From assembly GCA_051362555.1 (NCBI GenBank), contig CM120640.1, forward strand, positions 56,646,788 to 56,710,787: 64,000 nucleotides of DNA. Direction: 5' to 3'. The stretch is from Lingula anatina (lineage: Eukaryota; Animalia; Brachiopoda). The notes below the pieces were generated by a model, which saw nothing but the letters and a program-made list of their open reading frames with translations, searched no databases and had not been told where the DNA came from. How positions within the stretch are numbered: position 1 is the stretch's first letter; each line of letters opens with the position of its first letter. Shown here in pieces: positions 8,628 through 32,328 of the stretch. Made by a program: the position numbers and the translations under genes.

Positions 8628-11600
8628 ATGTCGTCCCAGTGTTCATTTCGTCAGACTGATGAGAAACATGTGACAACAGAAGTGGAACTAATGGAATGGT
8701 CTCCAAAAATGGACCTTTTGGCAGTGGCAAATATCCAGGGAGAGGTATGGCATTCACCCTGAATTGTAATGTTGTCTGCTTTTTGTAATCACTGTTTAAT
8801 TTTATTGTTATTCACATTCCAAGGATGTCATAAAATCCTTATGTCATACTTGTATCATATTTTGTAGACATGATAAAAGAATATATGAAAAAAAACTTTC
8901 AAAGGTTTTTTTTTAACATGCAGAGTAGAAATGCCTACAACTTCTCTCCAATAATTAATGCACCGTTTGCACGTGTCATTAGTCCAGATTATGTTTTTTT
9001 TTTTTTATTATTATTATTTCAGGTTTTGTTACACAGGCTATCATGGCAGAGGGTATGGAGCCTGCCACCTCCCACTGAGAACAGCAAAGTTAAAGCAATA
9101 GCATGGAGGACTGATGGAAAAGGTTTACTCCTTTATTTTTTTCTTCTTTTTGTGCTGAAAGAAATTCTGTTATCCTGGGTATTCTTAATGATAGTTGTAT
9201 TTTTTTCATTCAGTCTGTCTCAAAAAAGATTTGAAAACTTTTATTACTTGACCTCCGATTTAATTAAAAGTGTAGTAATGAAAAAATATAATACAATAAG
9301 AATATATAGACACTCAAAGGATTATGAAGGATTGTTGAAAATTGCGACAATGAAAGTATAGAATTTTTAAAATTACACTGCTGTCAAAAATGATTTATGA
9401 TTTATGATTGACACAAAGGTGCTAACTTTTGTTTAGACAAACATAGTATTTGAAAAAGGGACAACTGTCATCGTACATGTATGAATTATTCAAGTTTTTT
9501 TTCAATCTTTATTCAATTATCTTTTTAAAAAAGCATAGCAATAAAATCTGGCAATTTAAGTAAAATGCCACTTGTCCAATAACATTAGTTACAAGTTTTA
9601 GTCTCTCTTCAGTGTTAGCAGTTGGTTACATCAGTGGTGAGGTCCTGCTGTGTAATGTTGAGAACGCAGCCATCTTGCACACCCTTCATGTCCAGGGTGA
9701 GGTGTGCAGCATGCAGTGGATGTGTGACAGCATGGCACCAGCTGCAGGAAAGAAGTGCTATAAAGACAGATCTGCAGAATACCTACCAAAGATACCTACA
9801 CTTAGCAAAAGGTATTTCAAAAATCTTTTGTGACTTTTGATTAGTGTTTTTGTTTAGTAGGAAAATATGTTTTGTTTTTATTTGTTTCTTTTGTAACAAT
9901 TGTTGTAAAAGAAAACAATGAAACAATAATAAAAAAAAAATATTTTTAACATGTAGGTAAGAATGATTAGTTCTTCAGAAAAAAAACATAAGTCCAGGGA
10001 ACATAAACATCACAGAATTAACATACTATATTTTCAGTTATGGATCCCTAAGCAAAGGACACAGGTAATTACAAATGTGCATAACAAAAGTATAAATATT
10101 TGTTTAAAAGTTTAATAAAAATAAAGCAGAAGCTTATCTTGTAGTTATGTAGCAGTGGTATTATTTTGAGTAATTACATGCATACAAATTTGAATCTGTC
10201 TACGGATCTGCACCTACTTTTTTATATTGTTCAGCCACCTGGTGCATTGTTTTTTTTTTTCTCTCTCTTTTTAAGGTGGGGTGCAATATTTTTCATACGT
10301 TTTGTCTTGCACTTAGATGCTCAATTGATTAAGTGAAAAAATAGATTAAAAACAAAGTAAAAGACTAGAGATGATTAACTTTTCAAATCATTTTCTAAAA
10401 AGGTAGCAAAAGTATAACATATCGCCTAAGTTTTCTTTTTCTTCTATATAGCGAGGAAAATGTTGAAGATATGAAAAAATTAGCAGATCAAATTGGGTAT
10501 GTTCATTCATATATGTGTATTTTTTAATCATTATACATGATTACTTCTAATGGTATATCACAAGCATTTATATGTGTTGTTCATAGGCACTGTGATAGCT
10601 ATGATGTAATGCTGTTCATATGTACAATATATTGAGCCATTTGTAGTTATCATGATTTTCAATTGTTTATTGACATGTAACATTGACTGCCTATCTGATA
10701 TTTGTCAGTTGTACTTTAATAGAATTATACCTATAAATTTAGAAAAAAATATTGTCAAGTAAAATGCATCAGTCTGCTTTATGATGTATTTGCCTGAAAA
10801 GAAAAATGAAACTGACAATGATATCTTTCAGATTAAATATCCTTCTAATTGGAAACAATGACAGTATTGTAGAACTATTTGCCTATGGCATATTCCCAGT
10901 TGGAGCAGTAAATCTCAAACAGCACAAGAATACAAAGGTAATGGTGGCAAATAATAAAACACTGCATTTTGGTATTGTAGGCAAGTTCTTTTTAAGTGCA
11001 AAAGAGTTTTGGATGTTCAGGAAGAATTGAGAAAGATATTTTCTGTATTTTTTTTTAATTTTTATTTATTTATTATTATTATTTTTATTATTATTATTTT
11101 TTTTTTTTGCATTGCTGTGTTCCTACTTCTGAAGTGACCACAGAAAAATTACACAACAAAGGACTAAAATATATAATATAATAAAAATGTGATGTGGTCT
11201 TGTGATGTGATGTTATTTAAGCAAGCAGGATTGTAAATGGTTATGTTTCTGCTATGATACAGGCAGGCAGGATCATATCACTAAGTCTGTCTGAGGATCT
11301 GCACTTATTGTCCTTGATTGTACAGTCACCAAAGATGGAAGATCAACAAGACCAGGATGTTTATCTTCTGTCTGTGAGTCACCATATATCATTATGGTAT
11401 AATTTTAGCCATTGGAGAGAACATTGTGCTTTATTATTTTGATATAAAAGGACAGGAGTCTAACTGATGTTTTTGTGATCTCACTACTTACACAATCTTC
11501 AACATACCATTTTGAATTGCATCAGGTTTCTTAATTGTTAAAGCTATTTTTTAAAAATTTCATTGCAAAATAAAAATGTTTTGTTTCGGATTTAATTCTT

Positions 11601-14600
11601 TTTGTGTCACAAATATACCAAAACTATATGTTTATCATGTTTGTTGTTATTAATAGTATTATTATTCATAATTAGTTTGAGTCTACCCTTCTGGCATCAC
11701 GTTATGAAGAAGTGCAAGCTTTGGCTTTCAAATATGGGCATGTGGTTACATTACTCGAAGTAAGTTGTACATATTTCTTTAAACAACTAAATAAAATTAT
11801 TTGTTTGCCTATTGAATCAAGTGACCTTATTCATTAATATGAGAAATCAGCTGAACAAGATTAACTCAGATCAGTAATTTTACAGAAAAATGTGCTGACT
11901 TAAAGCCATGGGTGTACATGTAGCTATAGTCTTTCTTTTCTTCCCTGCTTTTCTTGAATTTTTGTTTATATCAGCATTTGAGGGTTATCATCAAACAAAT
12001 GTCTGAGGCCTGGGAGGATATTCTGCTGGAAATGGACTCAAAACTGGTGAAATTTGCTGAAGAAAAATATGTAAGTTCATATATTTCACATGTCATGTTG
12101 AGCTTAGAAATAGTGTTTGAATTACTAACATAACAGCATATGTGTTCATTAACTTGCTGACCCCGACATTTGTTTCTCTAGCAGAGATGTGGATTCTCCA
12201 AAGGCAGCCAGAGAAATCCAGCTATTAGTGTGATTAAACAAACTCTTTGTTAACAGTACAAAATATTCCCTATATACATATATTAAACACAACAAAAAAT
12301 GCATAATATATCAAAAGTGATTCTTTTAGTAAGGAACATTGAAGCCAATTAAAATACATCTATTAGACCTTCAACACAATTAAACTGAGGCTGATTTTAT
12401 CTTTAACCAAGGAGATGAAGCCATAATTGATGTTACTCAATCCTTTTACAACTGAAAGTATCCTTAAAAACTTAATTACAGTTCTTTCAAATGAATAACA
12501 TGCATTCAGATATTCAGGCAATTTTATTATTACTTTTCTGAAATTTCTTAGATAATTTTACCAAACTTTGACATAATTTTATTGAAAACAAGTTTCTCAA
12601 ATTATATATTTTTCCTTGAAGTCCTTTCTATGATATTACTTAAAAACACTAAATATCTGGATGTTAAACATGGCTCTTCACATATTTAGTATTTTTGTTA
12701 CAATATTTGCATTGCAGATGTTGGGGACAGGTACTGTGAGCAATGATTTCCTTGAGCTATTGCTGTTTGGAACTCCTAGGTGATGTATTTTCACTGTCTA
12801 TTCTTGTGTGGCATAGATACTTGATTGACAGTAAAGTGACATGAATATTTTAAAGGATGTTTCTCAAACAATTTTTTAGTTCATTAAGCAGTTTTTATTG
12901 CAAAGATTTTTATTTTACGAGCTGATATGAACATTTTAAGCATTATTATATTGTGTTTAATTTTAGTGATGAGTTGCAGTCCTTCCTTCTTCATGACTTG
13001 ACAGAGAAGGTATGTCCATAGTTTGTAGTTTATAAATATAAGCAATAAGTAGTGGATTTTGCTCATTGTCATTGATGTCCAAAAGCATGTTATCTTCATT
13101 AATAAAAAAAGATGACTTGAACTGAAATGTCACTATAGCACGCAAGGGCTATACAGATAAATTATAAGTCAAGGAAAAGCATATGTTGATTTGGTGACAG
13201 GGTTTCTAGGTCGTAGTAATGATCTGCTTTGCGTATCAATGGACGATCATTCACTTCAGCAAGTACACTAAGTAATGTCTCGTCATCCACTAATCTATTC
13301 CCCAAGATTGAATGCATGATTTTCCGTACTGATCTGATTTAACACTCCCATACGCCGCCTGCATGGCTTGCACTTGGAGGATTGAAATGCCATTGAAAGT
13401 TGCGTTGTAACAGAGAATCGTCGATTTTTTCTTGATTCCACTCCTGTAAAATGCGTTTAAGATCTGCTTCTGCACTTCTGAAATTGGTCCCGATATCACT
13501 GAATATTTCACACAGTGGTCCTCGTCGACTAATAAAATGCAAAACCACTTGTATGAATGAATCTGATGCCAGATTAAAGGATATCTCTAAATGCACTGCT
13601 CTTGTTGCCATACATGTAAAAATGCAACCATACTGCTTGTTTGTTCCTCTTCTGCATTTCATTAATAGCAGTCCAAAGTAGTCTACATCAACAATGAAAT
13701 GGTGGGTTCCCTGGAGTCACACGACTTCTTGGAAGTGGGGCTTTTAGCTCTTGCTCACGGTATCGACCCCTTAGTTCGGCTTCTGCTTCTTCAAATTCCA
13801 ACTGAGCATTAGCCATAGCAAGTGCTGCTTTTGTCTTTTGAGATTACGATACTGAATACAAACTGTTGGTTTTGAATTATCTATGGGATGGTCCAAAATC
13901 AACTAAGCTGCCGTGATAAGCCATGGTGGAAATTTCAGTGGGATGATAGAAGTGTTTTTACTTTATATAGCACGCAAGGGCTATACAGATAAATTAAAAG
14001 TCAAGGAAAAGTGTATGTTGTTCACTGGTCCTTGGTTTTATTTCACGCAGGAATTCACAAGACACGTAAAAACTAAAAAAAAAAAAAACAAAACAAAAAG
14101 AAAATTACAATAATGCCCTCACTACCAGTTATTTACGTGCTTAAATTTTTACATAAAAATGATAAATTTCAGTAATTATCAATAGTCAATAATAATCAAT
14201 ATTAACAGTATTAAAAACTCACCATTTCTGCCATTCCTTTGACTATAAATTGCAAGTAGCAAAAGTGAAAATAGCTGATCAAAAAGAAAGAGTACACTAT
14301 GTGTTCCTCCTACGGAGACACTGTGCTGAATGAAATAAAAAGCAAACTCGTGGGGCACCACCCTGAATGAAAAGCTGTCATATGCAAATGAATGTTTATT
14401 GCATTAGTTGAGCCAGTCACCTGGCTCCTCAACCTCAATAAAAGTAAACTAAACATTACAGTCACCTTTGTTTGGCCTCATCTTGTTATTCTATGAATGT
14501 TTTAAAGTTTGAGAAATTCACACTTTATGTAATATTTAATACTTTTTCCTTTAACTTCTTAGGGTTTAAAGAAATTGGGTCATTCCATAGAAACATCCTA

Positions 14601-17600
14601 TTCTAATATACAAAAACTGGTGTTGAAGCATTTACAGAGGTAAGTGAAAGCATAGTAGAAAAATTAAATGTCACATGTACACGAATAAAAAGCATCACGG
14701 ATTTCTTTAAATATATATCTGAAGTGTATTATAATGCTTCTAATTATGCCTTATTATTTATGAAATATTTGCTCTTGTTTTCCAGTGTAACCCAAGCACT
14801 CATTTACCATTTGAATGAGATAGCAGGGATGGCTAGTTGGTATGATAGATTTGGTCTGCTCGGCTTGTCCAGTCCCAGCGTACAAGAGGCTGTTCAAATG
14901 GCAGGAGCTTTTATGCTGAAAGCAGTAGAACTGCAGCAGTAAGTTGAAACAGTCATTTCTGATCACTTTTTCTATTTCCTTTGAAATAGGCAAAGATTGA
15001 TGAAACTCTGTTAAGTTATAGTTATGCAAAATATATTTTATTGTCTTATTTCTTAGGGTCATTGATGGGAGCATGAAAAATTTCAAAGCATTCTTTAGAT
15101 GGCTGTATGTTGGTATGTATATAAGTTGAAAATATGAGGCTTGATTAAACTTCACTTGAAGTCCTATAATTATCTTCAAAATATTGAGGCAGAATTCTTT
15201 ACAACATCCACATATTTTATCTCTTGTTTGAATCCAATTATGTACTTTTTTCATAAAAAAGCATGTAGCTTTTTTAATTACTACCTGTAGTGTTAGTTAT
15301 GATTAATTAGACTTAAGGAATATTTAACTGAATTACAAACTTAACTTAAAATATGTATTTTTATTTATTTAGTGATTCAGAGGCTGTCCCAGGAAGCTAT
15401 CCCAGCAGAGCTCAGCAAAGTATGGGTGATAGAATATAGATTGTAAACCTTTTTGACTGTTAATGTTTTCTTTGAGAGATTTTTAAATATTATTAATGAA
15501 AATGTCTTTGCCATGTAAATGTGTGTTAAACAAATATTTTATAAGTATTCAAATGTTACTTTTATTGAATTTTTATTATTTTGTCCACTTTTACCTAATT
15601 ACGATTGTCTTTTCTATAGATGACTCAACAAGATTTGAACTTTGTCACAGATTTCCTAAAGGAATATTTTACTGAGGTAAGTTGTTCAGTGTCCAAGACA
15701 AATGGTGGCTATAATATAATTCCAGAATTATTTGAAGCAACTTCAAATGTAATGAAATTGTCTGTCACCCATTATAATGTGATAATGTTAAACTGATTTT
15801 ACCTGGAGAGGTCTATAAGTCTGAAAAATTAATTTTCTTCTACTTATTACTTTTTGCAAAAGGGCAATTTCCTCCACAGGTTAAGCTAAGTCTGGACCAT
15901 TTGCTTATTTTTATAATCAATATAGCGCATTATGTCCATAATCCTTATTTGATTTTAGGAAATGGATGGCAGCTGTAAATCAGGATTCAAATTAGAAAAA
16001 GTGGGGCAGGTAATTATTTATGTTTTCTTTTTTATTATGATAGATTTTCTCTCATTCACATAATGTTTGGAGTATTTTTGAAATAGTTAAAGGGATAATA
16101 ACTCTTCATATGAGATCTATATTTCACAATAAAAACATTGTGAATAACTCATAGAAATATAATATATTCTGTTTAACCACAAAAACGGCAGTTATAGCTA
16201 TTATTCTGATATCTGAGCTTGTCTTTAGACCACGTGACCTCCATTGATGGCTATACTCTGTTAAAATCTCTTAAGAGATTTTAACAAAAAACCAAACTTT
16301 TTAGAAAAAAACCAGGGACTAACTTTGAATGTAAAAATGGATTCATTAACCATTGGTAAGTATGAGAAAATTGTTGTTCACTCCAGGAAAATTCATTTTT
16401 TGGCCAAAATGAAGAGTCATTATCACTTTAAGTACAATAGTGAAGTTATAAAAACAGAACTTTAAACTTAAATTTAACTTCAGTACTTGAAACATGAAGA
16501 GCTCCAGGAACCTCTTCCAAACACAGATAATCCATGGCTGAAGTTTGTCAATTCTAGTCAGCTGTTGCAAGGTGAGGTTACTTTAATTACTTTGACTTGA
16601 CAGTAAATTACAAATGTAAGTAATTTTTTGTTTGTTTTAATGTTTTTGGCGCTCAAAACTTTTTATGTAATGCTTTCTGTCATTAATTGTTTTATTTTAT
16701 TGTCAGTATGTTTTAAAAATGTTGTTTATATTATCTTTGACATTTATTTTAGAAAGCCCAGTGCTGTTCAAACCGCAAGTCAGACAGTCCTTGGTCCAGG
16801 TGGAAGATAATCTAAGAACTGCGATAAATGTTGCTCTTACTAAACCCTCTGTAAGTATTTTATACATTTTTTGAAACTGCAACAATATGCTTGCACGCGT
16901 TTGCAGATTCACAGCAGTGTATGTCACTATTATTTAAACAGGTCTACTATTCACATTACTTAAGCAGTGGTAGAAATTATTATGATGCAAACAAACAGCT
17001 TGTGCATTGATTTCTTTTCCAAAGCTGCTTGACATAATAATGGTGTGAAAAATGTAAAAGTTATTTTATATTACATATCACTAGAATGCTTTTAAAATTG
17101 TGAGCAGAATTGACATCAGATATGTGTTTGACACTTAATTTCTTTTCAGTAATATACAACATTTCTGTTTTAGAGTGCAATCGGGCAATCTTTACAATGC
17201 AGTGGATCTTCTTATCTGTTCACATATCAAAATATGTAAGTATATCAGTAACAGTAGCAAACAATTTTGTTGCATTACAGAAATAATTATGTACATGTAT
17301 ATAGCAGAAATTATGGTTGTTCATTCACTTAAACCTTAAGTAGCAAGTTTATATTAATTTATCTGTTTTATTTTTATGTGTGACATTTTCTTTTACAGGG
17401 ATGAAAAAGAAGAAAAAAATAAACTACTCAAACCAAAGTTTACACAGTGAGTTTTTTTTTTTTTTCTCTTTTCTTTTGGCAAAGGCAAGTTTCAAAACAT
17501 AGTTGCTTCCTCATGCCCATAAATTATGTGTAATTTGTTACCAAAAGGCCAAAGAAAACCACTTCTGTCATTTGAACGGTTTAAAAACTCCTTTCATAAG

Positions 17601-18697
17601 AATCTTCTTGTATATATCTTCACAAAAGCAATAAAAGCTATGTATTTGCCTTGCAGCTTCACTGTTTGCAATCAGCAAGCTTACCAGTATGTGGTGTTTA
17701 CAGCATCTTGCTCACCATCAGATTATCTATACCTTGTCAGACAAAAAACACATGCAGGGTGAGTAGCCTAGTTGGTGTTAACTGTTAAACATTGTTTCTG
17801 TATAACTCACTGAAAAAAATAAGATGACGTTGATAAATACTTTCTTCTTGCTTTCATGTTTCAGCTGCATTTGCATTTGTTATATATTTATTTATTATTT
17901 TTTAACTGAAGAGTTACCAATGTTCTATGTTTTGTAGATCTGATGGAGCTGACATTTCTATTGTGAAACTTAAGTTTGGTTGTCTAGGCACAACTAACAG
18001 GGAAGAAAGTGGTAGGGATGACAGGTACTGTATACCAAGTTATCATATCTGCTTTGTCATGCTGTACACTTTATGTTAATAAAAATTATAATAAAGGGAT
18101 GGGAGTTTACATGAGAAGCTCTATGCTTATCGTGTTAAACGGTAGTAGACAGACTCTATTTACCCTGCCATTTTGGGATATTTGACAATGAACCTGAAGT
18201 ATTTTTTATGGTTTGATTAATCCTTCTGTGCCATATGTTGAAGTTCGTTATTTTATAGCTGTTCATTAGTCATAAAACATGAAGTTAATTGTTTACCTAC
18301 AATAATATGAGATATTGATCCTTTTTTAGCAGGGTTAACCAAAGGTGATATTTTTAATATTATCTATATGGTGATTTGGTTCGTTTCATCTAATTATAAT
18401 AGATAAAAGCCAGGAGAGAGGCTAAACTACAGTTACTTACTACTGTTTGTCTAGACTCCACTTTGTAGATATGAAAGTCATAAAAATCCACAAATGAAAT
18501 ATTCATTCAGACAGAGTCATCATGTGGATTTGAAATATTTAAATTTTATTATGACTGTAGAAACTTCACAGTTCTCAAAAATGGTTATAGAAAAGAAATG
18601 CAAAAATATTTTACTATTAATAAGCATGCTAATTGTACAACAAATCAAATCACAATCAGCGTTTACATGCAACTAAGTAAGTACACGTGTGCAAGGG

Positions 18698-18743
<46 letters not shown>

Positions 18744-21700
18744 CAGCAGTACAGAAAACACTTTGCATCACCAATAATTCCCCTCTTTATACATGGTTTA
18801 AGGGACATAATGCAGATATCATGCTAAATGAACATATGTATTACAATGTTGCCTGTGGTAGAAAATGTTAGTATTGCCTAGCGAATAATGACACATTGCT
18901 CAGAGGAAGCTCTTTGAAATCACTACTAGTTTTCCTGTTGGTTGTATTTATGGTCAGTAAATGATTATACCTTCTGGTCATCTAACTCCCCAGATGACCA
19001 GTGGCTTACTGATCAAGGCAGACGCATGTTAATGTCATAAGTTAGAATGAATATAAGGCTTCATTCACATGGAATGTCTATTTTCAAAAAATCTATTTTC
19101 TATTCGCGCTATCTTATGATCACGGTCTGTGCCCTGAATATCCCGCGGCGTAATTACTGGCAGCGCGAGCCAGTTACTTATAGTAACTTATAGTAACTGG
19201 CTCGCGCTGCCAGTAATTACGCCGCGGGATATTCAGGGCACAGACCGTGATCATAAGACATACCGCAAATAGAAAATAGAATTTAGAAAATAGACATTGC
19301 ATGTGAATGAAGCCTAACTCACTGAATAATGCTTATTAGCATAGTTCTGGTCAGATGACAGAAAGGGATGCAGAACAAACAGAATGACTTCTTTAATGTT
19401 ATGATTTTAGAATTAAAGATTGCAGTTGGTCATGTAATTCTATAAATATGATACTTGGGTATAAAATTGTTTTATATATTTTCTTCTCCATTGCCATTTT
19501 TTTTATTTACAACACTGATTTCTTTGGCGATATGCTAATAAAATTTTATCTCCCATGCTGTTCATGAGTAAGTTACAAGTTAATAACAGGTGTGTAACAG
19601 TGCATTTTATCATTCATTTATCATATAAGCAATAATGCTTTGTACTTGATTTCTTATCATATAAGAAATTAATTGTAAAGTGTGAGAACTTTAATTATGG
19701 GACTAGTTCAATTGAGAATCTGCATATTTTAAGATACACAAATCTCGTCTGCTCTCCAGGAGCAGTTTGACTGGTCAGTTTATATCATTGTCTGCATCAG
19801 TGTATTTTCGTTTTCACTGCCTTGAATGAGCTCTGTGTTTGAAGTGGTGTTTAGGTCTGGTCTTGCTCCTAAACTTGTAAGTGGTGCTGTTGATGTGCAC
19901 TCTGGGATGCTTCTTGTGTGTCTGCTTTTTCACAGGACAGTGAGAATCTGGAAGAGTAAAATAAGTTATAACAAATGCATAATTATCATATAGACACTTG
20001 TAGTATTGAAACTTGGTATTAATCAGGTTTTTGTTAAGTCCAAAACATTTTATAATCAAACAATAGGTTAATTACCTTTAGATTACTAACTTATTTATCA
20101 AATTCAATTAATTACTCACACATATTTTTTCCTATTAAAAATAGTCATTATATATTCATTAGAAATTTAACCCTAAATACTTCATTTAAGATATACATAC
20201 TTTACATTGATTATTTAAAGGTTTGTGTTAAAAAGAGCAAATATGATATGGCCATACAGGAACCTTGGATTATACAAAGGCATGAGTTTTATTGATGTAT
20301 CACTTACAATGTTTCTACACAAACTTCATTTATCACATTAGTTTGAAGTTACCATAAGGTGAGAAAAATTGTTCAAGGGCCTCCTACCTGGATATCTAAG
20401 TGGATAATTAGGGGGATTTTGTCATGTGGTTATGAGTGGATTGCCTTATCACTTGGGCTTTAAGTGGTAGAGGACCATATGGTGCCCTTACCTTGGTTGA
20501 AGATTAGATACCCAAGTATTTGGTAGGGTTAGTGATTAGTCTACCTGTGTAGTGGATTTATTGCTACTTTTCACTTATTGACAATGGCAGAGTTTGTATT
20601 ACTTCAACTAATTTGGCAATATGTTGAGTGTAGTGGTATTTTGTGAACAGAACATCTGTTATATTTTTCTGGAGGTATATTGTGATGCAACTATGATACG
20701 GGGTTGAGAAATATTAGAACAAAGGGAAATGTACCTGTAGCAGGTTATGGTCCAGATGTTACTTTCAACGGATTGAAGATTTATAGCAAAAATTCAAGGG
20801 ATTTCATTTTTTTAATGTTTGGTCGTGATGATTATGTGATAAAGATATTGTGAAAGTCCTATCAGACTATTATGCAGTTTAATCAAGCTGCTACATTCCC
20901 ACACTCTCCTTATCTTTGCACGTGTCACACATTTTACCTTTCATGTTTGGCACAACAGAACCACAAGTAATATGTTGATCACCAGGATTTAAATATTCTT
21001 AATGGAGAAATGCAGCTCTTCCCCTTTATCTTCAAAGTTTATTTTCACATTTTGGTGTAAACAAAGATTATGATAGCAGAAAAAAAGATTTTTCAAGATG
21101 AAATTAAAGACAATATATTGAACATTTCATTGTTTAAGATGTAAGTTACAAAATAATGAATCTAATCAAGTGAATCTAATTCATCCAGAAGTGCCAGAAG
21201 TGGTTGTCTTTGTTGGGATGACACCCCAAAAACTTTATATCTCCAGGTTTACCAGATGTACACCTTTTTAGAAAATTGAGTTTTTTATCTTTAGTCTGTA
21301 GTAAGCCAATGCAAGTTTAAGTGTCTGTGGATTGTTTTGGTAGCATAAATGCACACAGATAAAGAATGTGGCACGTGCCACTTCGCAATGAAATTTACAT
21401 TTCAAAGTACACAGTTAAAAGGGACAGCTGTTTTGGCAAACCCAAATTACCATTAAAAGATGTCAGTGCATTGACTGTGTGCAAGTCTCATTTCCCATGT
21501 GAAAAATGACCTCACTTTAGCTTAACTGTCAGATAGAGAGGTGATAGCAACATATCTTGCATTTGATTTTCACCTGCAAATGTCTGCCTCTATTGTTCCT
21601 ATGTGGTATTATCTTTGATTTGTGGCATCTATTCACCTGCACAATACTAGTGCTCTCCACTTGATTGACACTAGGCTACATTTCAGATAATTACTTACAT

Positions 21701-24700
21701 CATAAGGTTGGTTGTATGATTATTTAGACATTCTATATTTTCATTGCATTTTGTATTTGCCATTCAGTTCAAACTTTTTTCAGTCAAAAAAATGGCTAAT
21801 CCATTTGATTTCTTGAGGATTTGAAATTTTGGTACCTTTTTTCTCTCCTGGATTTTGATTCAATTATTGCTCTTCTATTATAACTTAGTACATTTGACAA
21901 GGATGCTGTCTGGTCTTATTTTAGTTATGCAGAAGTTGCCACATGCACATGTGTCCTGATTAAATGTTTACTTCAATGTTTCAGTAAATAGTTAGCTCCA
22001 GTTTGTAATAATACTGTAACATACTGTATTCAGGGGCGGATTTAGGCCGTCTTCTGGGTCTTCTGGAAGACGGTCAGATTTTCAAGTTTACATTGACAGG
22101 TATCTATTTTTTTCTGTTGGAAGACGGTCAAAATTCGAGGATGGATCAACAAAGATAATTTGGAAGACTGTCAGAAAATAGCTCTGGATCCGCCCCTGGT
22201 ATTCATAGGGGTGTCAGAGATGACCACTTTTACTTATTTAAACTGCATAATTAAAAACGTAATTTGCAGTTAATCACAACAGGTGTCATGAATACACTAC
22301 ACTAAATATACGCATGTAAACAATGACATGAGACTCAAATCATCGATATGTTATCAGCATTTTAGGGTTCCTCACACATTCCTCATTTCCTCTCACAGAT
22401 AATTACTTGTTTTTATTGATATGATATATTACTGGCATTGTCTTTCTTTTTTTCCTTGTGTTAATTTAGAATTTTTACCATAAACTATGAAGTTGGTCTA
22501 TAATGGTGAGATTTTTAAAAACTGATTCAAAAATAGATGAGAGGCATGCCCCTCTTAGCAATTGTTTGCCTTAAATTTCTCCTTAGTTACATCCGCATTT
22601 CCTCCTCTTTCACTTCTAACAGCCAACAGTTATTTCCTTTCATGGGTCATAAATGACATTTTACAGTTTCATCACATCCCTGGCATTCATACATTTTTCC
22701 CTTTCTTACCTGTAAACTTGAAAGCATGCCAAGAGAGAAAAGGGCTCTCTATGCTTCCTACACCTGTGGCATAGGAATGAACTTATAGATAAGCTTAAGG
22801 CCTGGAGTTTTTTAAACTGCATGCAAATATTCACCCCCAGCCTATTGACCTCTCCTGCAGTATCTTGTTGTTGTAGTTTGAAAATGCCTGAACCCTGACT
22901 GAGACTTTGTTAATTTGTGATGATGCGCCTAAGCCACTTGTGTTTCTCGAGGCTTTGGTGCCACTGAAGTAGTGAAAATTTGGGAGAAGAAGTCGACATT
23001 AATGGGCTTTATTGACAAGATGTGCTATCTGGTGCCAGTAACATTAAGTAGACCAAAAACTTTCTGATTTGGAGCTCTAGCTGGTACACGTTAAGGTTTT
23101 TAGGCATATTGGCTCTAGGTTTGAATAGCAATAGATGTATTTATTTGAAGGAGAACAAAGTTTAATAATATGTTAAATTGTGTAGATGTTTACTACTGTA
23201 TGTTTATATTAGGTTATCATTAATAGTCCTATAATAGAAAACCCCTCCAGGTATTTTTTGTTTCTTTTCTTCATTTTTCATTTGTTTTTTCTTTTTTCAA
23301 ATTTTAAACGCACCTATATAAACTTACAAATAGCAAAAACAAATCACCATTTCTAATCTGTTTTCATATGAATGCATGTTATTTAACAAATTGCTCATGT
23401 GCTATAAATTTTTTAGCATACACAGACAATAAGCCTTTTAACCACACTAAAATGCAGAATCTCAGCAGATGTGACATCGTGTTGGGTTGAACTCTTGTCA
23501 TCTGCTACTTACGCCTTTAGCTTGCCACATGTTGACATTTTTTCCAGCTTTATTCTTTGTTGTCAAGGTTGCCAACTTTACACTCCCCAAACTACATAGG
23601 TCTGCAAAACCCCAAAACAACAGGAATTGATCCTAGAAAATGCATTGCAAACCCTGTGCTTTTGTGCAAATAGATAACTCATGTAAACTCAGTGAATCTC
23701 TTACCTGGGGTTTGCCATAATTCCACAGCAATGATATGGTGGCTTCTGGAAAAGTCTTTAATTTGATGAAAATGGTCACAGTCCCAAAGGGCCATATGAC
23801 CATCAGCATGCAGAGTCCTCTCTCTGAAAGTCAGCAGACGAACAATACCTTGTTTACCCATCAGAAATTTGGCAATAACATCAGGCCCACCACTGTGGAG
23901 CCTCAGAATGACAGGACTCTCATATTTTGCCGCTAGGAATGGTCCACTAGCTATGGCTCTGAATATGTAACGATGATTGTCTTTTCCACGTATAGTTTCA
24001 TTTTTTTGCACAGTGTAAGTGGGAAGATGGTTGACAACTGCATGTCTTCCTCCTATGGTATTGAGTGTATATGAGAGTCTCAGGCTGCTTGTGTTGTGTC
24101 TCCAGTGTTTAGTTTGTCTTCCTATTAAGGTGTAGAGTTCTGTGTCACTGTACTTCCCACCATAATGTCTGTAGCCTGGATAGTGAGCCTTTAGGTCTTC
24201 AAACTTTGGCAGTTGGAGCTTTTACAAAAAATGAAAAAAAAATTAAGGATTTTTGCAATTAGCTGTTGAAGAAGTGAACATAAAAGGAACTTTTGGTACA
24301 GTTTCCTGAAACCAAGTTATTTCATATTTTAATTCGATTTAATTGTAGAAATGCTTATAATTTGCTGAATCTATGAGTTTGTTTGATAAATCTCTTTGTT
24401 AGATAACATAAGAAGTGTAATTACATTAAATGCCTTTAAGGCTTCAAGGTGCCATAAGTCTTTTCTTACATGGTTAAACATAAATACTTACAGAATTTGC
24501 CATTGCTATAAAAACACTCCAAAAAGGAACAATCCATGTAAGTTTCCACCCCATCTTTTTTCCTTTTTTCTCCAGACTTGTATTTTTAAGTTCTTCTTCA
24601 GTTCATGAATATCTGCTTACATATGTTTAGAAAACTTCATTAACTGAGAGTTTTATCTGTCCTCTGTGCTTCAACCATAAAGTGTTGTTGTATTGGCTGT

Positions 24701-27700
24701 CCCCTCCCTCTGTCACCTCTTTCTCTGCCTCTCACTCTATTTATGGAGATTGTCAGCTGCCTGCTGCCTTTCTGCCACGTGCCAGGGCTTTAAGCCTGAG
24801 TCGCTCAGGTAAAATAATGGCACGCTCCAGCAGATTAACTACAATTAAACTCAGTTGTGTTGTGTTGCTGGGTTGTAAACTTGGCCTCATGTAAGCCACT
24901 GACTGGTGTATGACTTGTGCATCTGTTGGCTTTCTGTGTCTGGTTGGCACGCGTGTGTGTAAATGAAATAGTAGGCCAGTCTGCTGTGGGGGTAGCATCA
25001 GATGTTAGAGATAAGATATTTGCATGGGAATTTTGTAATGTCATGAGAGAATATGATTGTTTTTGATAGAAATTATTTGGATTAGATATAAATCAAAAGT
25101 ATGCTGGGGTCAGTTTAGATGGGACAAAAAAAAAAAAAAGAAATTTAGGCATGCATTTCTTTATCCTATAATAGACAAAATGTTGAAATACAGATAGATA
25201 GGGGTATCAGAGATGTGTTCACATGACTAAGGGTCATTTATGTGTTATCTCTAACTATGCTATATTTATGCATCATTATTTCATTCACTTTACTTTATGA
25301 TTAAAGACATTTAGCCAGATGAATAAAGCAATTAACACCTCTCCTCCTTTAATTTGAATGGACTCTTCTCAGGTATGGGCAGTTTAGGTATTTTTGCGAT
25401 TCTCAACATCTCTGAAGATATAAGTGAGGAAGAGAGAAATGTTGACATTTACCAAGTGAAATGTAACAGATAACTAGAGCTGATATTTTTTGCAATTGAT
25501 GAGCACCTTTGCCTCTCTGCTCTGTATGAATCTGTTGGTTAGCCCTTGTAGAATGGCATTTTGTAGGACCCCCAAGTTTGTATTAGTGCATATAAGTGGA
25601 GCTCATTATTTTTGGTTACATATCCAAGTATTTGCATTTATGCAGACAAAACAGATGCCATTTGTTTGAGAAATTTGATAATAAGTTTTTAATGCAAAGA
25701 CAAAACATGCCATTTTCATTACAGCAAGCAGGATGTAACAATTTTGCAAATGTTTTTCAATTTTCTGAACATATTGTTGTCTTAATTATTCAGAAATCCT
25801 TTATGCATTTCAATTTGAAAAGTTCAATTCTTAGAAAAGAATTCTGCTGTCTTTTTTTTTCTTTATGTTTGATTTTTTAGAAAATAATTGGAAATTGATA
25901 TTTTCTTTATCTGCTTTTCTTTCTGAAAAATAAAAAATAATAATAATAAAAGTTGTTTCCTTACTACCTGTACAGGAATTAGTGAACACGATGGGAAGGA
26001 AATTGCCCACTGTCACTGCATAGGTTCATTTATGTGTAAGAAAGTAAAGAAATTAATAAGATGAGAAAATAATAAGTTTTGCCTGCCTCCCTGCTGTTTA
26101 AACAAAATAATATGATTAAGCAGTGTGCCCAAGAAATGAGCAGGGACCAACACAAAAGTCTGGACCATTGAGGTGTGGGGCCTTGCCATATGGTCATCTT
26201 ATCCAACAGCGAATGAGTATGGTGTATTGACTGACACTGAGAGCCAATCAGTGCAGTTTAAAGCACTGTTGAACCAACACCATTGTTTGTGTGCTTTGTT
26301 CCTGAGATTGTTTGATTTAGCAGTTCTGTCGACAACCTTCCAATCTCGGAAGTGATTAGCCTTTGTTAGACTTGATTACACAGGGGGGATTGCAAACTTT
26401 CCTATACTACAGAATGATGAGAATTTATCAGTGTGCTTATGTATTTATTTATATATACATGATACAGATGTTTGACAGACCAGAGGATTTTCATAATCTA
26501 TTTCATTTACAGGTTAATTAGCTATATTCTTAATTCTAAGATATTAATTAAGCCTAACAAAGATGAATTATCAAAAATATTCTGCCTGGCCATATGTTAT
26601 GTGATCACTTTAGGCTTTGTGAAGACTTGTGAAAACACCGAGCTCGTGTTAACAAAGAAATTAAGGTGTATAGAACTTCACATAAGCAAACAGCGGAGCG
26701 TGCCATGTAATGCCATAAAGGTATACATTATGAACAGAGAGCCTAGTTCTTTTATCCCTTTGCTTCTTCACTAGATTGATGCGAAGTCATAAATGCCATT
26801 TAACAAAGCAATAGCCAAAATGTGAAGAGGAATTTTTTTAGCTGTTAATCACATTGAAGAAAATCCAAATGGAGAAAGGAGAATAATGAAAGGAAGTGGC
26901 TTAGAAATAATCAAGTTTAGGGAGTGCATAAAGGCTTAAAATAGATAGAAATAGATTTCAGAATATATTTAGGCCTTTATCATACAATATCTTGCCTTGC
27001 CCAGAACCTTGCCCAGTTGGACTTTACTTTTGAAGTTTGTATAGTATGACATGTGGAGGGAACATAACTGAACATCAAAGTTCCACCACTTGATTACAGC
27101 TGGAGCTAGATTCACTTCATGTGTTTAGTTTAGCATTGTCTTCCGGTAAGCAGATGTTCCAAAGGCTCCCGCCAAAACTGTCCTGATTAATTTGATATGT
27201 AAATCTCTAGTTAAACGTTCATAGGCAGCTGATGATGGAAGGTCTTTTACATACATGAGTTATTTTTGGTCCTAGTAATTTATCTTTTATCCTTTATCAT
27301 ATTAGGTTTTCTTTTGATTGTCATATTGTTCATATCTTAAGGATGAAAGATTAAATTTTGTAAATGAATGCTGTTCTTTGTTTTATATAAGCAGTGGCTA
27401 TCTTAAAATAACAATCAGCTGTTAATAAGTTTTATTATTATTATAATCTGCTACGATTATATCCTAGTGAATATTAGACAGCTGATAAAATAGTCTAGTA
27501 AACTGCTGTTTGTAGCTTTTTTATTTGTTACTTAAAGTTACATATGTCACTAAACTGCCCAAATGCCATCACTTAAGGCCCAGTCACAATGTCGGCGATC
27601 TGTCGGGGATTAGTTTTGGCCGGGGGTCGTCGTAGAAAATAAAGAATCCTTGAACAATCCTAGCAATAATCCTAATAAAAGTGGAGCAGTCACATTGTCT

Positions 27701-30700
27701 GAGATTTTTTCAAGGATTTTGACCCGGTATTGTCGAAAAATCGTGGGATTAGCCTCCGATCGCCTCCGATTGCATCGGAGGCGATCGGAGACGATATCTG
27801 CGAGCGTCTTTTCTTGTATTTTTTTTCCCCCTGGGTATATGTGTATATATCTTGCGACTAGTCTCAGATTATTCAGATGATTAATCGGAGGGCATCGTAG
27901 GTCATCGGAGATTGTGTCTGGGATGCCCAAAATGGGTGAAAAATCTTGCGAGCAATCTTAACATTTTAAGTTCAAAGTTGGGGACCGCGACGGGTGTGGC
28001 GATGTCTAAAAAATCTGCGACAACCCGCAGGTGTCCGGAGAGTGCCTCTGACGGGTACAAAATCGTGAGATCTGTCTAAAGATTTTGTTCAAATTTCCCG
28101 GGTTTTACCCATCCCCGACGCATCGCAACTGATTTGTGACTGGGCCTTTAGTTTCAAATAGTACAACTTAAAGAAATACCAAAAGGTGTTGTCCCATATT
28201 CATAACTATATTTGAACACATCTTTTCTGCTTTCTTGCTGTGCTATATATAACTCTCAGTTTTTCCTTCAAGTCTTATTTAAATATTTCTGTTATTTGCA
28301 CATGCAGCAGTTACATGTCATACATAACTATGTCATTTGGCGCACTTTATGAACCAAAAGAACAGATTAAAAGGTCAAGTTTTAAGACCAGCAATTTGAA
28401 AAAGGTGCATTTTAAAGCTGATTTTTGGTTGATTGAGGGATTAATTTGAGTTGATTACCAAATGCATTCTGAGATGCAAAATCACTGTTGGTGAGAAAGT
28501 TATAAAACAAATTTACAAATTGAAATATCTGCTGTCATCAGATCACATCTCCAACAAATGACAAAAAGATTCTCTTGTACATCAAGATTTGCCTATGACC
28601 ATAGAAAAACTTCCACTGTACAGATTGGATAGGACATGGACAATAAATGGATGAATGAAGAAAAAATGTGAAGCAAAAGTAATGTACTTTTAAGGAAAAT
28701 GCTCAACATGCCATAGAAAGCAAAGAAAACAAAGGGATAAGTTATAATTACAAACTAATATCAATATGCAAAGGAAAAGCAAGTTCATTGTTTTTATCAA
28801 ATGAAAAAAATTACTGGAGAATTTTGTGATAACATAAAAATTGAATATGAAAAAAATCATAAGACAGGGAGAAAATATTGGACAGCCTCTCAGAATGGAC
28901 ATACTTAAAAAGGCCTGTAAAGCTGCTATATACTGAGTTGGCTTGACATAAAAAATGATGGAGAACCACAATGACCTACACCAGTCATCATAGCGCTTGA
29001 TGATATTGTTTTATATATTTATGTTGGTGACTCAAATGAATAGTAATGTTAGGGTTTTTCATTTATTGTATTTATCGAAATCTGATAATGCATGCTTTTT
29101 GTATCAGTGCAACATAATTATTGATAAAAAAAGGTTTTTTAGTAGATTTTATTTGACCAAGTGTAAATTCTACAACCGTGAATATCACAGAATAAATTTT
29201 GAAAATATAAAACATTCCTATTCTTTTCAAATTCTGGTTTTTCTGGACTACAATGAGATACTAGGAGAGTTGGTGCCATCTGTGCTAAAGTTTGGTACTT
29301 AGGCCACCCCATCCCCAGCCGCTAACAATGGCTGCCAGGGATCTTTTTTTCCCACACTGATAATGTTACTTCACCACAGATTATATTCAGTGTAATTCAT
29401 GGCCTAGGATAAAATTCATTGATTTGCTGTAATTGAGTTTGAAAAGGCCTAGTAGTCAGTTGCTGTTCTTCTGATATGCATACAAATGTTGGATATAATT
29501 AATGACTCCGTTTCACCTGGTCTTGGATAAAGAACAATGTGTGATGTGGTGGGAATAGTAAGCTTTTTGAATAATCTACTGAAAATGATTAATAATCATG
29601 AGAAAAATTAAGCCTGAGGATCTTGTATTTCCCAGAATCTAACATCTGATTTTTTTATTTTTATACTGTGCTTGTTCTCTGAGGAAATATTTCCTGTATA
29701 AAAGTGTCCATTTCATTCAAAAACTTGCTTCTCAGTATATTATCCATTTGTAATTTTTTGTAATTTGCTTTGAGATTGGACATTAAAGTTATTTGGTAAG
29801 AGTAGTTCATACACAGAGTAGTAAAAAGAAGCAGCTAGATGTTATGTTTTCATTCTAATACGTTTTGCAGTATTTAGTTAGATAATTGAAAATGCCATCA
29901 AAAATAAAACTTGTTATTGATTTTTTTTAAATTTATTTTTATTTTAAAGCTGAGAATATTTTTCCATCCTTGATGAGAGCAGCATAAAACATTATCTTAA
30001 AAGCAGTTCTTTTGGTACTTAGTTGAGAAAATTTGCACTTCAAAATTGAAAACACCATCTGCAGCCTGAAATTCTACCAGCCAGCTGCATTGCACTACTT
30101 TTATAGGCAGCTGTTCTTTTTATGAGGCAGTATTCATAAGTATTATGATAGTAAATATCGGACTACCATAATTTTATCACTAAAGTGTACCCACTATAAT
30201 TATTAAATTGTGGTAAGCTATAGTTTTTTATGAAAATACACATTTGGATGTGTCATCTTTGGGTTCCAATTTTAAGATTATCCGGAGAGGTACAGTGTGT
30301 AACCTGACCCTCACAACTGTGCTACTACATGGATTATGTTGTTGTATGATAATCAGGTTTCACTGTTCAGTTTTCATTACTCCAAGTCAGTTGAAATTCT
30401 GCATTAGTTTTTTAAAATCTTTACTAGAATTCTCAATTATTGAATATGTAAAGAAACAATAAAATTGAAGATTTACAACTAGTATTGATTGAGGGGTGTT
30501 ATTATTAGCATTTTTATTTTAGAAAAATAATTACAAGAAATAAACAAGAAAAATCCAGTTTGTTTCAGTCCTTTGTACTTTTGTAAGGTTTAATTTTAAC
30601 ATTATAATGTTTTTCTTTGTCATGTGAAATTGACCAGATTAATAGAAAAATCATAGACACATGCCACAAAGAAAATAATAAGCGCAGTTGTCATGGGCAG

Positions 30701-32328
30701 TTAATCACAGTTGATGGCAAGGCAGAAACTGAACATGTTTAAGTGGTCAATTATGTTAAATCATCCATAAAAATGCTATCATCTGTGATATGTCATAATG
30801 AACACGTTGTTTGCCCAGGGAGATAGTCCCAATGGTTTAACCTGCCAATCATTAGAGCTGTGTGCACCTGCCAGGTCTCACAAGATGAATGGGAACACTG
30901 ATTAATGCATCAAGTGGCTGCCCCCTAATTTTCCCACTGGATTCAAAATTGCTTAGTTTGTTGTAAATGAAAAAAAACTCTTTTTTTAAGTAAAATATTT
31001 ATATTTCACAATGAATTTTAATAAAATTAAATAATTGTGTACTAGTGACAGTGCTCCAAAATCCATGTGTGTGAAGAAAAAAAGTAAACAATGTTGCTTT
31101 AAAAATTATTATCCTGTACAAAAAATAAGATTACAGATTTTTACTTTCTGGTGGATAGAAAAGGAGGTGCCCTTTGATATCTAAGCAAATAACTGTTGAT
31201 TTTGCACTTTACCTATGATTTTGCCCCATAGGGATTTGGAACACAAATATTATTTTTGCTTTAATATTTTGTTCTTCTCTCTTTTAGTTGTGATACCCAT
31301 AAAATACTAGATGTTGCCTTCTACAATCAAGAAAAACTGTCTGTACTACTGCTAGAGGACCAGCTGGATGGGTTGCCTGTGTTGGCACAAGTTTCAATTT
31401 CCAACATAGAAGATGACCAGTTTAATCTGGTGCCAAGTGGACAAGAGGATTGTTTAACACAGAGAGATATGTAAATGGAATTCCTGAGCCCTTGGTAGCC
31501 AAAAAAACATCCAGTCATTTTCAGTTGTGTCCATTTTTTCATTAATTGCATTCAATGAAAAGTATGTTATTTTCACACAATTTCTCAAATGATTTGAAAA
31601 AAATATGGATGTTATGAGAAATTACTTATTTGCATAGAAATAGGTGATAGCTAATACACCTTACTTTTGTTTTTTAGTCCATTCACCATGTCTGCAGTTT
31701 TGAAAACAAAACACTCATTACAAAATATTTTAATTAATTTCTTTGGCAGTGTTAGGTAAAATGACAATAGCTACAAAAGTTTTAGCACATTGAATTGTTT
31801 CTCTATCAGACATTGTATTGATGCTGGACCCCCCATGGAGCCTATGTACTACAGAAGACTGGAGAACATGAAGGCATACTCTTTTGCTGTTAGTGGCACC
31901 AGACATGTTGCCTGTGTGGTAAGTTTATACATCCTGGATAGCATAATTATTTACCAAAGGCAGTGCACATTCATTAACTTTGGATAAAAAATTAAAATAC
32001 GAGATTTTATTGAAATTGTAGGCATTTCCTTTTTTTATTGTCTTAAAAACAAGATGTATACATCTGTTGCAGATCCTCGATAAATTACACCTTTTTAACT
32101 ATTGTAACAATCATCAGATCAAAAGAGGGTCATTATCTTCATAATATTTTTTAGTTATTTTCCTCACGTCGACGTGTCCGCCTGTTTTTGATGGATGCTG
32201 AAGATGATGAAGACGAGGATGATACAGAGCTGAGCATTCAAAGCACACAGGACATAAGTACTATTAGCAGAGACACTACGGAGGAAGATGACAAAGAAAA
32301 TACTGACACATCTGGAATGGACGGTTGA
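8628..32328 (+). CDS. ANAPC4: Anaphase-promoting complex subunit 4, 26 predicted coding exons
   Basis: Exons: 8628-8744, 9023-9122, 9613-9811, 10038-10064, 10452-10496, 10832-10937, 11263-11373, 11676-11759, 11975-12070, 12718-12779, 12967-13009, 14563-14639, 14786-14938, 15057-15112, 15373-15419, 15620-15676, 15959-16009, 16484-16571, 16753-16850, 17174-17235, 17399-17446, 17657-17758, 17938-18024, 31288-31470, 31810-31918, 32155-32328. All are GT-AG and in phase. APC4 motifs: WSPKMDLLA, LLHRLSWQRVW, MSEAWEDILLEMDSKL, LTEKGLKKLGHSIE, MKNFKAFFRWLY, AVSGTRHVACVLFSSRRRVRLFLMD. Confidence 0.95.
13128..14064 (-). mobile_element. Internally deleted BEL/Pao LTR retrotransposon relic (integrase core fragment)
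   Basis: The - strand encodes ...YGCIFTCMATRAVHLE...FISRRG...IFSDIGTNF...WHFNPPSASHAGGVWE, typical of BEL/Pao integrase. A ~55-bp direct repeat (atagcacgcaagggctatacagataaatt...) at 13136 and 13967 is a likely LTR remnant. Boundaries are approximate and no clear TSD was found. Confidence 0.85.
16091..16427. mobile_element. TTAA-flanked MITE (Kolobok/piggyBac-like), copy 1
   Basis: TIRs agggataataactcttca ... tgaagagtcattatcact, with TTAA on both sides. Homologous to 43528-43836 and ~55508-55845. Confidence 0.8.
18700..18738. repeat. (GA)n microsatellite
   Basis: gagaga... run. Confidence 0.95.
19057..19314. mobile_element. Almost fully palindromic MITE (PIF/Harbinger-like), copy 1
   Basis: ggcttcattcacatg...catgtgaatgaagcc with TAA TSD. 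The arms pair almost to the centre (gccagttacttatagtaacttatagtaactggc). A near-identical inverted copy is at 42231-42487. Confidence 0.9.
19814..24554 (-). CDS. Nested antisense gene: secreted Tae4/Dae4-like (type VI amidase effector family) protein, 236 aa, with Cys-to-Ser at the catalytic position
   Basis: Exon 1, 24492-24554: MGWKLTWIVPFWSVFIAMANS, signal-peptide-like, donor GTAAGT. Exon 2, 23705-24218: 514 nt stop-free, LQLPKFEDLKAHYPGY...HNTSSLRLSYTLN..G...GKDNHRYIFR...FLAAKYESP...LMGKQGIV...ADGHMALWD...VELWQTP, donor GTAAGA. Exon 3, 19814-19947: DSHCPVKKQTHKKHPR...KHHFKHRAHSRQ*. Phases 0 and 1 match. Motif order matches Tae4 as recalled: NxCxxRxSYxLN, YIYR, GKKGII, GHVTLW. Confidence 0.82.
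22031..22198. mobile_element. Small MITE with CAGGGGCGGAT termini
   Basis: caggggcggat...atccgcccctg, flanked by the direct repeat GTATT. Contains internal repeats of ggaagacggtca. Confidence 0.8.
24737..24745 (-). promoter_or_regulatory. TATA-like box upstream of the nested Tae4-like gene
   Basis: CATAAATAG on the - strand, ~185 bp upstream of the ATG at 24554, followed by purine-rich 5'UTR-like sequence. Confidence 0.35.
27576..28147. mobile_element. Non-autonomous PIF/Harbinger-like DNA transposon
   Basis: TIRs aggcccagtcacaa ... ttgtgactgggcct with TTA TSD. The interior is CpG-rich, unlike the flanks. Confidence 0.85.

Follow-up and report, generated by a model that had tools for sequence, protein, structure and literature searches.

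A spliced, cysteine-less Tae4-family gene antisense within an ANAPC4 intron of Lingula anatina

What use does an animal have for a gene of a bacterial toxin family whose cutting residue is gone? This question is raised by a locus in the window analysed here, a 64,000-nt stretch of the genome of the brachiopod Lingula anatina (contig CM120640.1, positions 56,646,788 to 56,710,787), where a gene of the Tae4 family of type VI secretion system (T6SS) amidase effectors was found on the minus strand within an intron of the gene ANAPC4. The reading favoured here, to which a probability of roughly 0.48 is given, is that of a spliced, expressed, cysteine-less Tae4-family protein of one early bacterial origin, predicted to be secreted and likely to bind bacterial peptidoglycan without cutting it.

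The nested gene, its transcripts and its host

A reading made from the sequence alone had proposed three minus-strand exons with canonical splice sites and matching phases, giving an open reading frame (ORF) of 236 amino acids (aa) nested antisense in ANAPC4. On re-derivation, exons 24554-24492, 24218-23705 and 19947-19814 were found to splice into 711 nt with one terminal stop, encoding 236 aa, and both introns have GT..AG ends. The spliced product is identical to that of L. anatina RefSeq LOC106168566 (P0001), named "uncharacterized protein", on whose record the Tae4 domain is already precomputed; the description of the gene as hidden was thus mistaken. The features of the gene and its host are as follows.

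24492..24554, minus strand: coding part of exon 1, 63 nt, with the start codon, a 21-aa hydrophobic leader and a phase-0 donor GTAAGT
24219..24491, minus strand: intron 1, 273 nt, GT..AG, at a position common to related animal loci
23705..24218, minus strand: exon 2, 514 nt, with the whole Tae4 (NlpC/P60-like) domain (residues 22-193), ending in phase 1
23705..24218, minus strand: key residues of exon 2, namely Ser65 for the catalytic Cys, the retained His162 and the animal-specific Cys168
19948..23704, minus strand: intron 2, 3757 nt, GT..AG, phase 1, after W-x-x-P-G, containing a dispersed repeat at about 22030-22200
19814..19947, minus strand: coding part of exon 3, 134 nt, with a conserved D-S-x-C start, a basic tail and the stop
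24555..24745, minus strand: likely 5' untranslated region (UTR) and core promoter, from the drop in X1 RNA depth and a motif reading
24745-24738, minus strand: inferred TATA-like motif CATAAATA, picked from the sequence
19300..19813, minus strand: 3' UTR, RNA reads extending to 19300, the edge of the stretch examined
8628..32328, plus strand: host gene ANAPC4, 26 exons, 793 aa, from an exon model picked by eye
18025..31287, plus strand: ANAPC4 intron 23, the host intron, phase 2, 13,263 nt, from the exon model and Pfam matches on flanking exons

Splicing was investigated in four RNA runs (X1, X4, X7 and X9) aligned over 19300-25400. The joint 24492/24218 was spanned by 20 reads in X1, 0 in X4, 4 in X7 and 5 in X9, and the joint 23705/19947 by 39, 0, 5 and 0 reads respectively, in both cases at the exact predicted bases and with CT..AC ends on the plus strand. 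The exons of the nested gene were uncovered in X4, and X9 showed the first joint alone. First mates of the X1 exon reads lay nearly always on the plus strand, which fits minus-strand RNA in a usual stranded library, and X1 depth was 5.1 in the bin 24604-24807 versus 0.05 in the bin 24808-25011. The gene had also been proposed to be eukaryotised and not a contaminant, and this was upheld: the reads are spliced and derived from poly(A) RNA, the introns are common to other animals and the gene sits inside an animal gene. An artefact, whether bacterial contamination or a chance frame, is refuted by the spliced poly(A) reads, the placement in ANAPC4 and the same-intron orthologs, and its probability is negligible.

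Two elements with a resemblance to miniature inverted-repeat transposable elements were observed in or near the gene. At 22030-22200, within its second intron, there is a short dispersed repeat with inverted ends (by eye) and hundreds of loose-ended RNA reads, while a near-perfect 260-nt palindrome with arms of 98 and 34 nt was identified at 19056-19315, at the far end of the 3' region.

All 26 ANAPC4 exons have AG/GT ends and form a single open frame of 793 aa. Intron 23, at 13,263 nt versus a median intron of 278, was found to contain the whole nested gene. Among solved structures, exon 13 has matches to ANAPC4 chains (E 4.6e-9). A Pfam scan took 10 of the 26 exons: five upstream of the nested gene matched ANAPC4_WD40 or ANAPC4 (PF12894, PF12896), two downstream matched WD40_APC4_C-half (PF23405) in order, with E values of 0.023 and 5e-5 that lie under the curated cut-off, and three gave no match; exon 24 alone gave none in a search of PDB sequences. 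The exon model and the Pfam families on both sides place the gene in intron 23, and nesting in an ANAPC4 intron, as the sequence-only reading had it, is supported. The ANAPC4 splice across this intron would follow from the exon model, no RNA junction spanning it having been seen.

Tae4 fold and the catalytic cysteine

Exon 2 cleared the Pfam profile Tae4 (PF14113) with 33.7 bits against a cut-off of 27 (E 4.5e-8), and a profile of 18 relatives gave four matches among PDB sequences, all of them Tae4 (E 4.5e-7 to 1.8e-6). Two AlphaFold models were made, one with animal rows only (mean predicted local distance difference test score, pLDDT, 70.8) and one with 60 rows, five of them bacterial (mean pLDDT 86.1). 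Foldseek with each of these two predicted structures returned 11 matches under E 0.001, all Tae4/Ssp chains. In a wide structural search the leading chains were 4jur_A (Z 16.2, root-mean-square deviation 2.4 over 149 residues) and 4bi3_A (Z 15.3), with the next chain at Z 6.9 and then NlpC/P60 enzymes at about 5; an Atlas search was in agreement. Profile matches and modelled structures alike thus indicate a member of the Tae4 domain family with a Tae4-type NlpC/P60 fold, as had been claimed. The four ordered Tae4 motifs that had been described are all present, but the first of these, NTSSLRLS, carries serine at the Tae4 catalytic cysteine (NACPIRMS in 4hfk), the gap-free register of N-T-S-S-L-R-L-S against N-A-C-P-I-R-M-S placing Ser65 at that position.

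The nucleophile cysteine is needed for activity in both Salmonella Tae4 and the Nematostella protein nvDae4: Tae4 works via Cys44-His126-Asp137, with alanine at Cys44 or His126 abolishing toxicity (PMC3695027), and the C63A form of nvDae4 is inactive (PMC8713801).

The column of this cysteine was examined in three sets. The main animal set comprised 161 rows, among them near-duplicates, fragments and records without names, after P0142 had been dropped before counting as a repeat artefact; among the 147 rows with a letter at the column there are 110 Ser, 18 Ala, 10 Asp, 7 Thr, 1 Lys, 1 Gly and 0 Cys. A siboglinid-like set of 35 rows had Cys in 0 of 34, with four rows carrying a Cys one position later. 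In the bacterial set, whose rows come from loci picked by the motif around the histidine, Cys was found in 65 of 65. The catalytic cysteine is therefore lost in the Lingula protein and in every animal relative found. The gene is of dae4 type, yet its predicted product has serine at the cysteine that defines an active Tae4/Dae4 endopeptidase, and the active peptidoglycan endopeptidase implied by the sequence-only reading is not supported. As a cutting cysteine was seen in none of the animal relatives, the protein is likely to bind bacterial wall material and not to cut it.

The other catalytic positions bear on a different possibility, namely that the protein is still a hydrolase, with Ser65 as the nucleophile alongside His162 and possibly Asp176, through a natural Cys-to-Ser switch in the NlpC/P60 fold. 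Besides the prevalence of serine given above and the form of the Tae4 triad, this is favoured by a histidine at the His162 column in 146 of the 159 main animal rows and by retention of Asp176 in 147 of 159. However, Asp176 aligns poorly to bacteria (Asp in 21 of 66) and lies 14 residues past the histidine versus 11 in Tae4, and its equivalence is putative. Furthermore, the nucleophile column holds Ala or Asp in annelids and Thr in some bivalves and a bryozoan-like contig, and Arg replaces the histidine in 11 rows of bryozoan and nemertean types. The retention of the gene in these lineages speaks most strongly against a catalytic role across the family, and Cys-to-Ser replacement in papain-fold enzymes generally abolishes activity. 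A serine hydrolase is accordingly regarded as improbable.

Some relatives are multi-copy. P0147, P0148, P0171 and P0173-P0204 form a divergent group lacking both Cys and His (with Asp/Glu and Ser there), one member of which is from Lamellibrachia satsuma, and which has the look of an expansion among siboglinid tubeworms that carry symbionts; P0202 was modelled with Tae4 and Stanniocalcin domains and is possibly a gene-model fusion. In heterodont bivalves, the paralogs P0004/P0078 (Mercenaria) and P0007/P0079 (Mactra) have close locus numbers on one long contig each, likely reflecting tandem duplication, and some second copies carry Thr at the nucleophile site.

Animal relatives, origin and the ANAPC4 intron

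Relatives were taken from the best 137 of 2107 candidates (120 listed) and 49 representatives. Those with names are from molluscs (bivalves, gastropods, Octopus and the chiton Liolophura), annelids (Capitella, Paralvinella and Lamellibrachia), bryozoans (Watersipora and Bugula) and the nemertean Tubulanus, and among the matches listed none was named outside Lophotrochozoa or bacteria. The Lingula protein shares 40-49% identity with relatives in other phyla, and intron positions are shared as well, so that the ORF was found to be conserved. Among the RNA variants listed (40 of 138 rows), 10 of the 13 coding variants are synonymous, which together with the cross-phylum identity indicates that the gene is maintained under constraint.

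A tree of 63 rows placed its 32 animal rows on one side of a branch with SH-aLRT 99, where shuffled labels need about 21 changes; seven of its eight P-numbered "bacterial" rows were labelled so from motif and placement. The animal branch received SH-aLRT 98 in a quick 56-row mixture tree that omitted seven long or partial bacterial rows. Molluscs grouped at support 100, and the animal rows sorted roughly by phylum. The phylogeny that had been proposed thus sets the animal rows apart from bacterial Tae4, in a tree that is unrooted and without Nematostella Dae4. Thirteen metagenome loci were also found, and 11 were parsed for introns. A G/GT donor right after W-x-x-P, as in Lingula, occurs in 10 of the 11, the eleventh being a spliced transcript, and the acceptor lies two codons before L-P-x-F, as in Lingula, in seven loci and one codon before it in one. 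A single origin is suggested by the placement of the animal rows to one side of a branch and by the common intron positions, and the simplest reading is that one transfer preceded the divergence of molluscs, annelids, nemerteans, bryozoans and brachiopods. The split of these phyla dates to more than about 540 million years ago.

The non-animal relatives found are bacterial only (59 loci, from many phyla), and bacterial ancestry of the lophotrochozoan dae4-type gene is likely on this sequence comparison. Among 88 of 102 ORFs in the 3-kb flanks of 16 of the 59 bacterial loci, no T6SS or Tai4 Pfam match was obtained at E<=1e-6. In six loci of marine gammaproteobacteria (L003, L008, L011, L012, L014 and L020), an unannotated ORF of 113-157 aa with no Pfam family abuts the Tae4-family gene from behind, and these ORFs are candidate immunity proteins.

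The nesting itself was looked for in relatives. Three bryozoan-like contigs (L065, L066 and L072) belong to one species, being 97.6-98.5% identical, and the L066/L072 domain is sister to that of Watersipora (71% identity, SH-aLRT 97-98). On L072, six exons with AG/GT ends were picked by hand on the strand opposite dae4 (10168-10062, 8933-8807, 7834-7737, 7454-7378, 6686-6561 and 6197-6138), guided by ANAPC4 similarity itself; they join to 197 open codons that match residues 427-627 of Lingula ANAPC4 (32%, E 3e-18), with a global score of 168.5 versus a maximum of 17.5 over 500 shuffles. Compared to Lingula ANAPC4, two of the introns have the same aligned position and phase and two, in matching phase, are no more than 3-4 residues away, while the last is in phase 2 just after the LKFG motif, as is Lingula intron 23. 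Beyond this phase-2 donor lie dae4 exon 3 (L072:2658), reading D-SHCPKKVK-stop versus D-SHCPVKKQ in Lingula, the core exon, and the leader exon with its phase-0 donor (L065:2427-2498).

A low-power search for ANAPC4 exons 24-26 gave none in either the intervening 5.6 kb or the further 4.7 kb; in Lingula, the distance from the core exon to exon 24 is 7.1 kb, past the reach of the bryozoan-like contigs. An exon-25-like match (L072:5755-5687) was rejected owing to its E value of 0.16, an in-frame stop and shuffled exons that score alike. Pfam gave no ANAPC4 family on 119 minus-strand ORFs of L072/L065, a scan of low power because no score was obtained either from the seven ORFs that cover the part already known to be ANAPC4-like, and two L072 exons had no match among PDB sequences. 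The other 12 metagenome loci yielded no colinear ANAPC4 exons; the majority are too short to be informative, and the mollusc-like L071, one of the 12, has none in its 10 kb downstream. Adjacency and antisense orientation of dae4 and ANAPC4 are nevertheless observed in the bryozoan-like contig, so that the conservation of nesting raised by the sequence-only reading was recovered in order and orientation, on one flank only, and full nesting there is likely. As the same three exons lie antisense beside the matching ANAPC4 exon, the nesting is likely to be ancient.

Elsewhere in the window, a multi-exon gene of the beta-lactamase family (PF00144) with a hydrophobic leader and an SxxK motif was identified at 32835-36546 on the minus strand, tail to tail with ANAPC4, making it a second secreted protein beside ANAPC4 with a fold tied to bacterial wall chemistry. 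Frames at 13290-13716 (minus strand) in ANAPC4 intron 11, with a short direct repeat by eye near 13135 and 13966, resemble a retrotransposon integrase remnant, no Pfam match being obtained at E 0.01. A G+C-richer island at 27580-28150 in intron 23, with a 115-codon frame without a Pfam match, is probably a transposon relic. The ordinary neighbours comprise a RhoGAP gene (6002-6694, minus strand), MGAT2 (45617-46234, plus strand) and an OTU deubiquitinase (61872-62696, minus strand).

Possible function and known systems

The 21-aa leader is hydrophobic, occupies its own exon, forms a helix at residues 8-18 in the model and has similar counterparts in relatives. It is likely to be a signal peptide, and the protein is predicted to be secreted. 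Cys168 was found in 158 of 158 animal rows versus 0 of 68 bacterial rows, and in each of the 68 spliced proteins that continue with Asp into exon 3, a second cysteine lies no more than seven residues from the start of that exon (near residue 196 in Lingula); a disulfide between the two is therefore proposed. The 43-aa tail holds 13 K/R, 8 H and no D/E, and the mature protein has a pI of 10.2.

Such a composition would also suit a basic, His-rich tail that acts as a cationic antimicrobial peptide, tethered or released, with the dead domain as its carrier or targeting module. Ends that are basic and rich in R and H are also seen in the molluscan, annelid and nemertean proteins listed, and the tail is of low confidence in both AlphaFold models. 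However, its sequence is variable, its length ranges from 6 to 130 aa across relatives, and bryozoans, with just 6-9 aa, have no tail to speak of, the domain being the conserved part. This explanation is considered quite unlikely.

The favoured sequence of events would start with a single transfer from bacteria before the five phyla split. The leader and tail exons would have been gained, and the nucleophile lost, all before that split. The animal-specific Cys168 would pair with the exon 3 cysteine and so stabilise an extracellular protein, whose old substrate cleft, with His162 retained, would take stem peptides or muropeptides as ligands, and docking on bacterial surfaces may be aided by the cationic tail. 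By analogy, the protein may thus serve as a sensor, opsonin or scavenger through peptidoglycan binding, which is tentatively put at just under even odds. ANAPC4 intron 23 would be an old landing site, a functional tie to APC/C forming no part of the proposal.

Several points weigh against this. The proposed role in peptidoglycan binding leans on ancestry, the leader peptide and charge, and the residues common to bacteria (R68, S70, N74, Y105, W166 and W189) may be structural. Arg at the histidine site in the 11 bryozoan and nemertean rows, the short bryozoan tails and the loss of both Cys and His in the siboglinid group indicate that the cleft is not uniformly kept. Another set of residues (G36, G42, S96, P114, A117, E187 and F188) is nearly invariant in animals and not in bacteria, which would agree with a new ligand. 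Near the gene no NF-kB-like site was found, the one match in the window (35538) comparing to 2.2 expected. The trees, furthermore, are quick and unrooted and do not include Nematostella or enterobacterial Tae4.

Some of these points are shared by the possibility that the fold was co-opted for a non-bacterial ligand, the secreted product then acting in matrix, mucus or signalling and taking a peptide, protein or glycan of the host as its ligand. The animal-specific invariant residues, the slow and mostly low-copy conservation over five phyla, the survival of the gene where the histidine has become Arg, the low or absent expression in some RNA runs and the NF-kB-like site not found nearby would all agree with such a role. 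Against it, no analysis pointed to a host ligand, the closest solved folds are all peptidoglycan enzymes, and the bacteria-hosting siboglinid group has many divergent copies; in addition, both Nematostella tae4 homologs, including the one without the cysteine, are reported to be induced by cGAMP via NF-kB (PMC8713801). A non-bacterial ligand is thus held to be somewhat unlikely. A further version of the history is given little chance: a bacterial wall toxin acquired by the ancestor of lophotrochozoans over half a billion years ago, with the same ANAPC4 intron kept in brachiopods and bryozoans, and that acts as a Ser-His-Asp amidase in molluscs and brachiopods and purely as a peptidoglycan receptor elsewhere.

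Should the clade bind peptidoglycan, aquaculture species would possess a class of pattern-recognition protein that has so far gone unrecognised. The clade itself would be a transferred toxin that has been without its nucleophile since before the five-phylum split and is still kept in oysters, mussels, scallops, snails and octopus. The transfer, if true, would be among the older ones from bacteria to animals with a traceable landing site, and the likely shared nesting in brachiopods and bryozoans would be a rare genomic character bearing on lophotrochozoan relationships, should other phyla agree on checking.

Non-catalytic peptidoglycan binders derived from amidase folds include the sensor peptidoglycan recognition proteins (PGRPs) and mycobacterial RipD, and these serve as the working model, by analogy, of a dead hydrolase whose cleft binds peptidoglycan. 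The PGRPs have Zn-amidase folds and RipD is bacterial, whereas the Lingula protein is from an animal and of the Tae4 branch; a literature search for non-catalytic NlpC/P60 precedents returned nothing on point. Compared to the bacterial T6SS effectors Tae4/Ssp1 (PDB 4hfl, 4jur and 4bi3), the Lingula protein has the same Pfam family, fold, motif order, histidine and core residues. Unlike them, it lacks the catalytic cysteine, a Tai4 partner and a secretion apparatus, and its gene has a leader exon, a cysteine-bearing basic tail exon and two spliceosomal introns.

Among eukaryotes, Chou et al. 2015 reportedly lists dae4 in Capitella and Lottia. By sequence, the Capitella and Lottia proteins are members of the cysteine-less clade (P0010, P0030), and the clade, perhaps with its loss of the cysteine, may already have been noted there. 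No description was found of a molluscan, brachiopod or lophotrochozoan Tae4 clade without the cysteine, or of nesting in ANAPC4, in a literature search outside of which most subscription papers lay. Eukaryotic domesticated amidase effector (dae) genes are already known (bioRxiv 2020.04.10.036376; PMC5303276), and like these bacterial Tae genes, secreted in eukaryotes without a T6SS (bioRxiv 2020.04.10.036376), the Lingula gene is a genomic gene of a eukaryote with spliceosomal introns and expression. Tick Dae2 differs from the Lingula protein: it belongs to a different Tae family, is enzymatically active and was acquired about 40 million years ago (bioRxiv 2020.04.10.036376).

The closest parallel is the pair of tae4 homologs in Nematostella, nvDae4 (LOC5507694) and Dae4-like (LOC5507684), both of them cGAMP-induced (PMC8713801). 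As in Lingula, these are Tae4-derived animal genes, nvDae4 is secreted, and one paralog is predicted to be without the catalytic cysteine. Unlike the Lingula protein, nvDae4 retains Cys63, cleaves peptidoglycan and kills B. subtilis (PMC8713801). In the 100-nt probes of the PMC8713801 supplement, translated by eye, Dae4 reads NTCAIRLS and Dae4-like ATGHVDLYDG, as in bacteria, and the GHxALWDC of the lophotrochozoan clade is not in these probe sequences; since they read as bacterial in type, a separate transfer is possible. Interest in the domesticated amidase effectors known so far lies in their being active antibacterial enzymes, and the lophotrochozoan clade represents the other outcome: animal Dae4 is known as a kind, and what is new is a variant without the nucleophile that is kept across five phyla.

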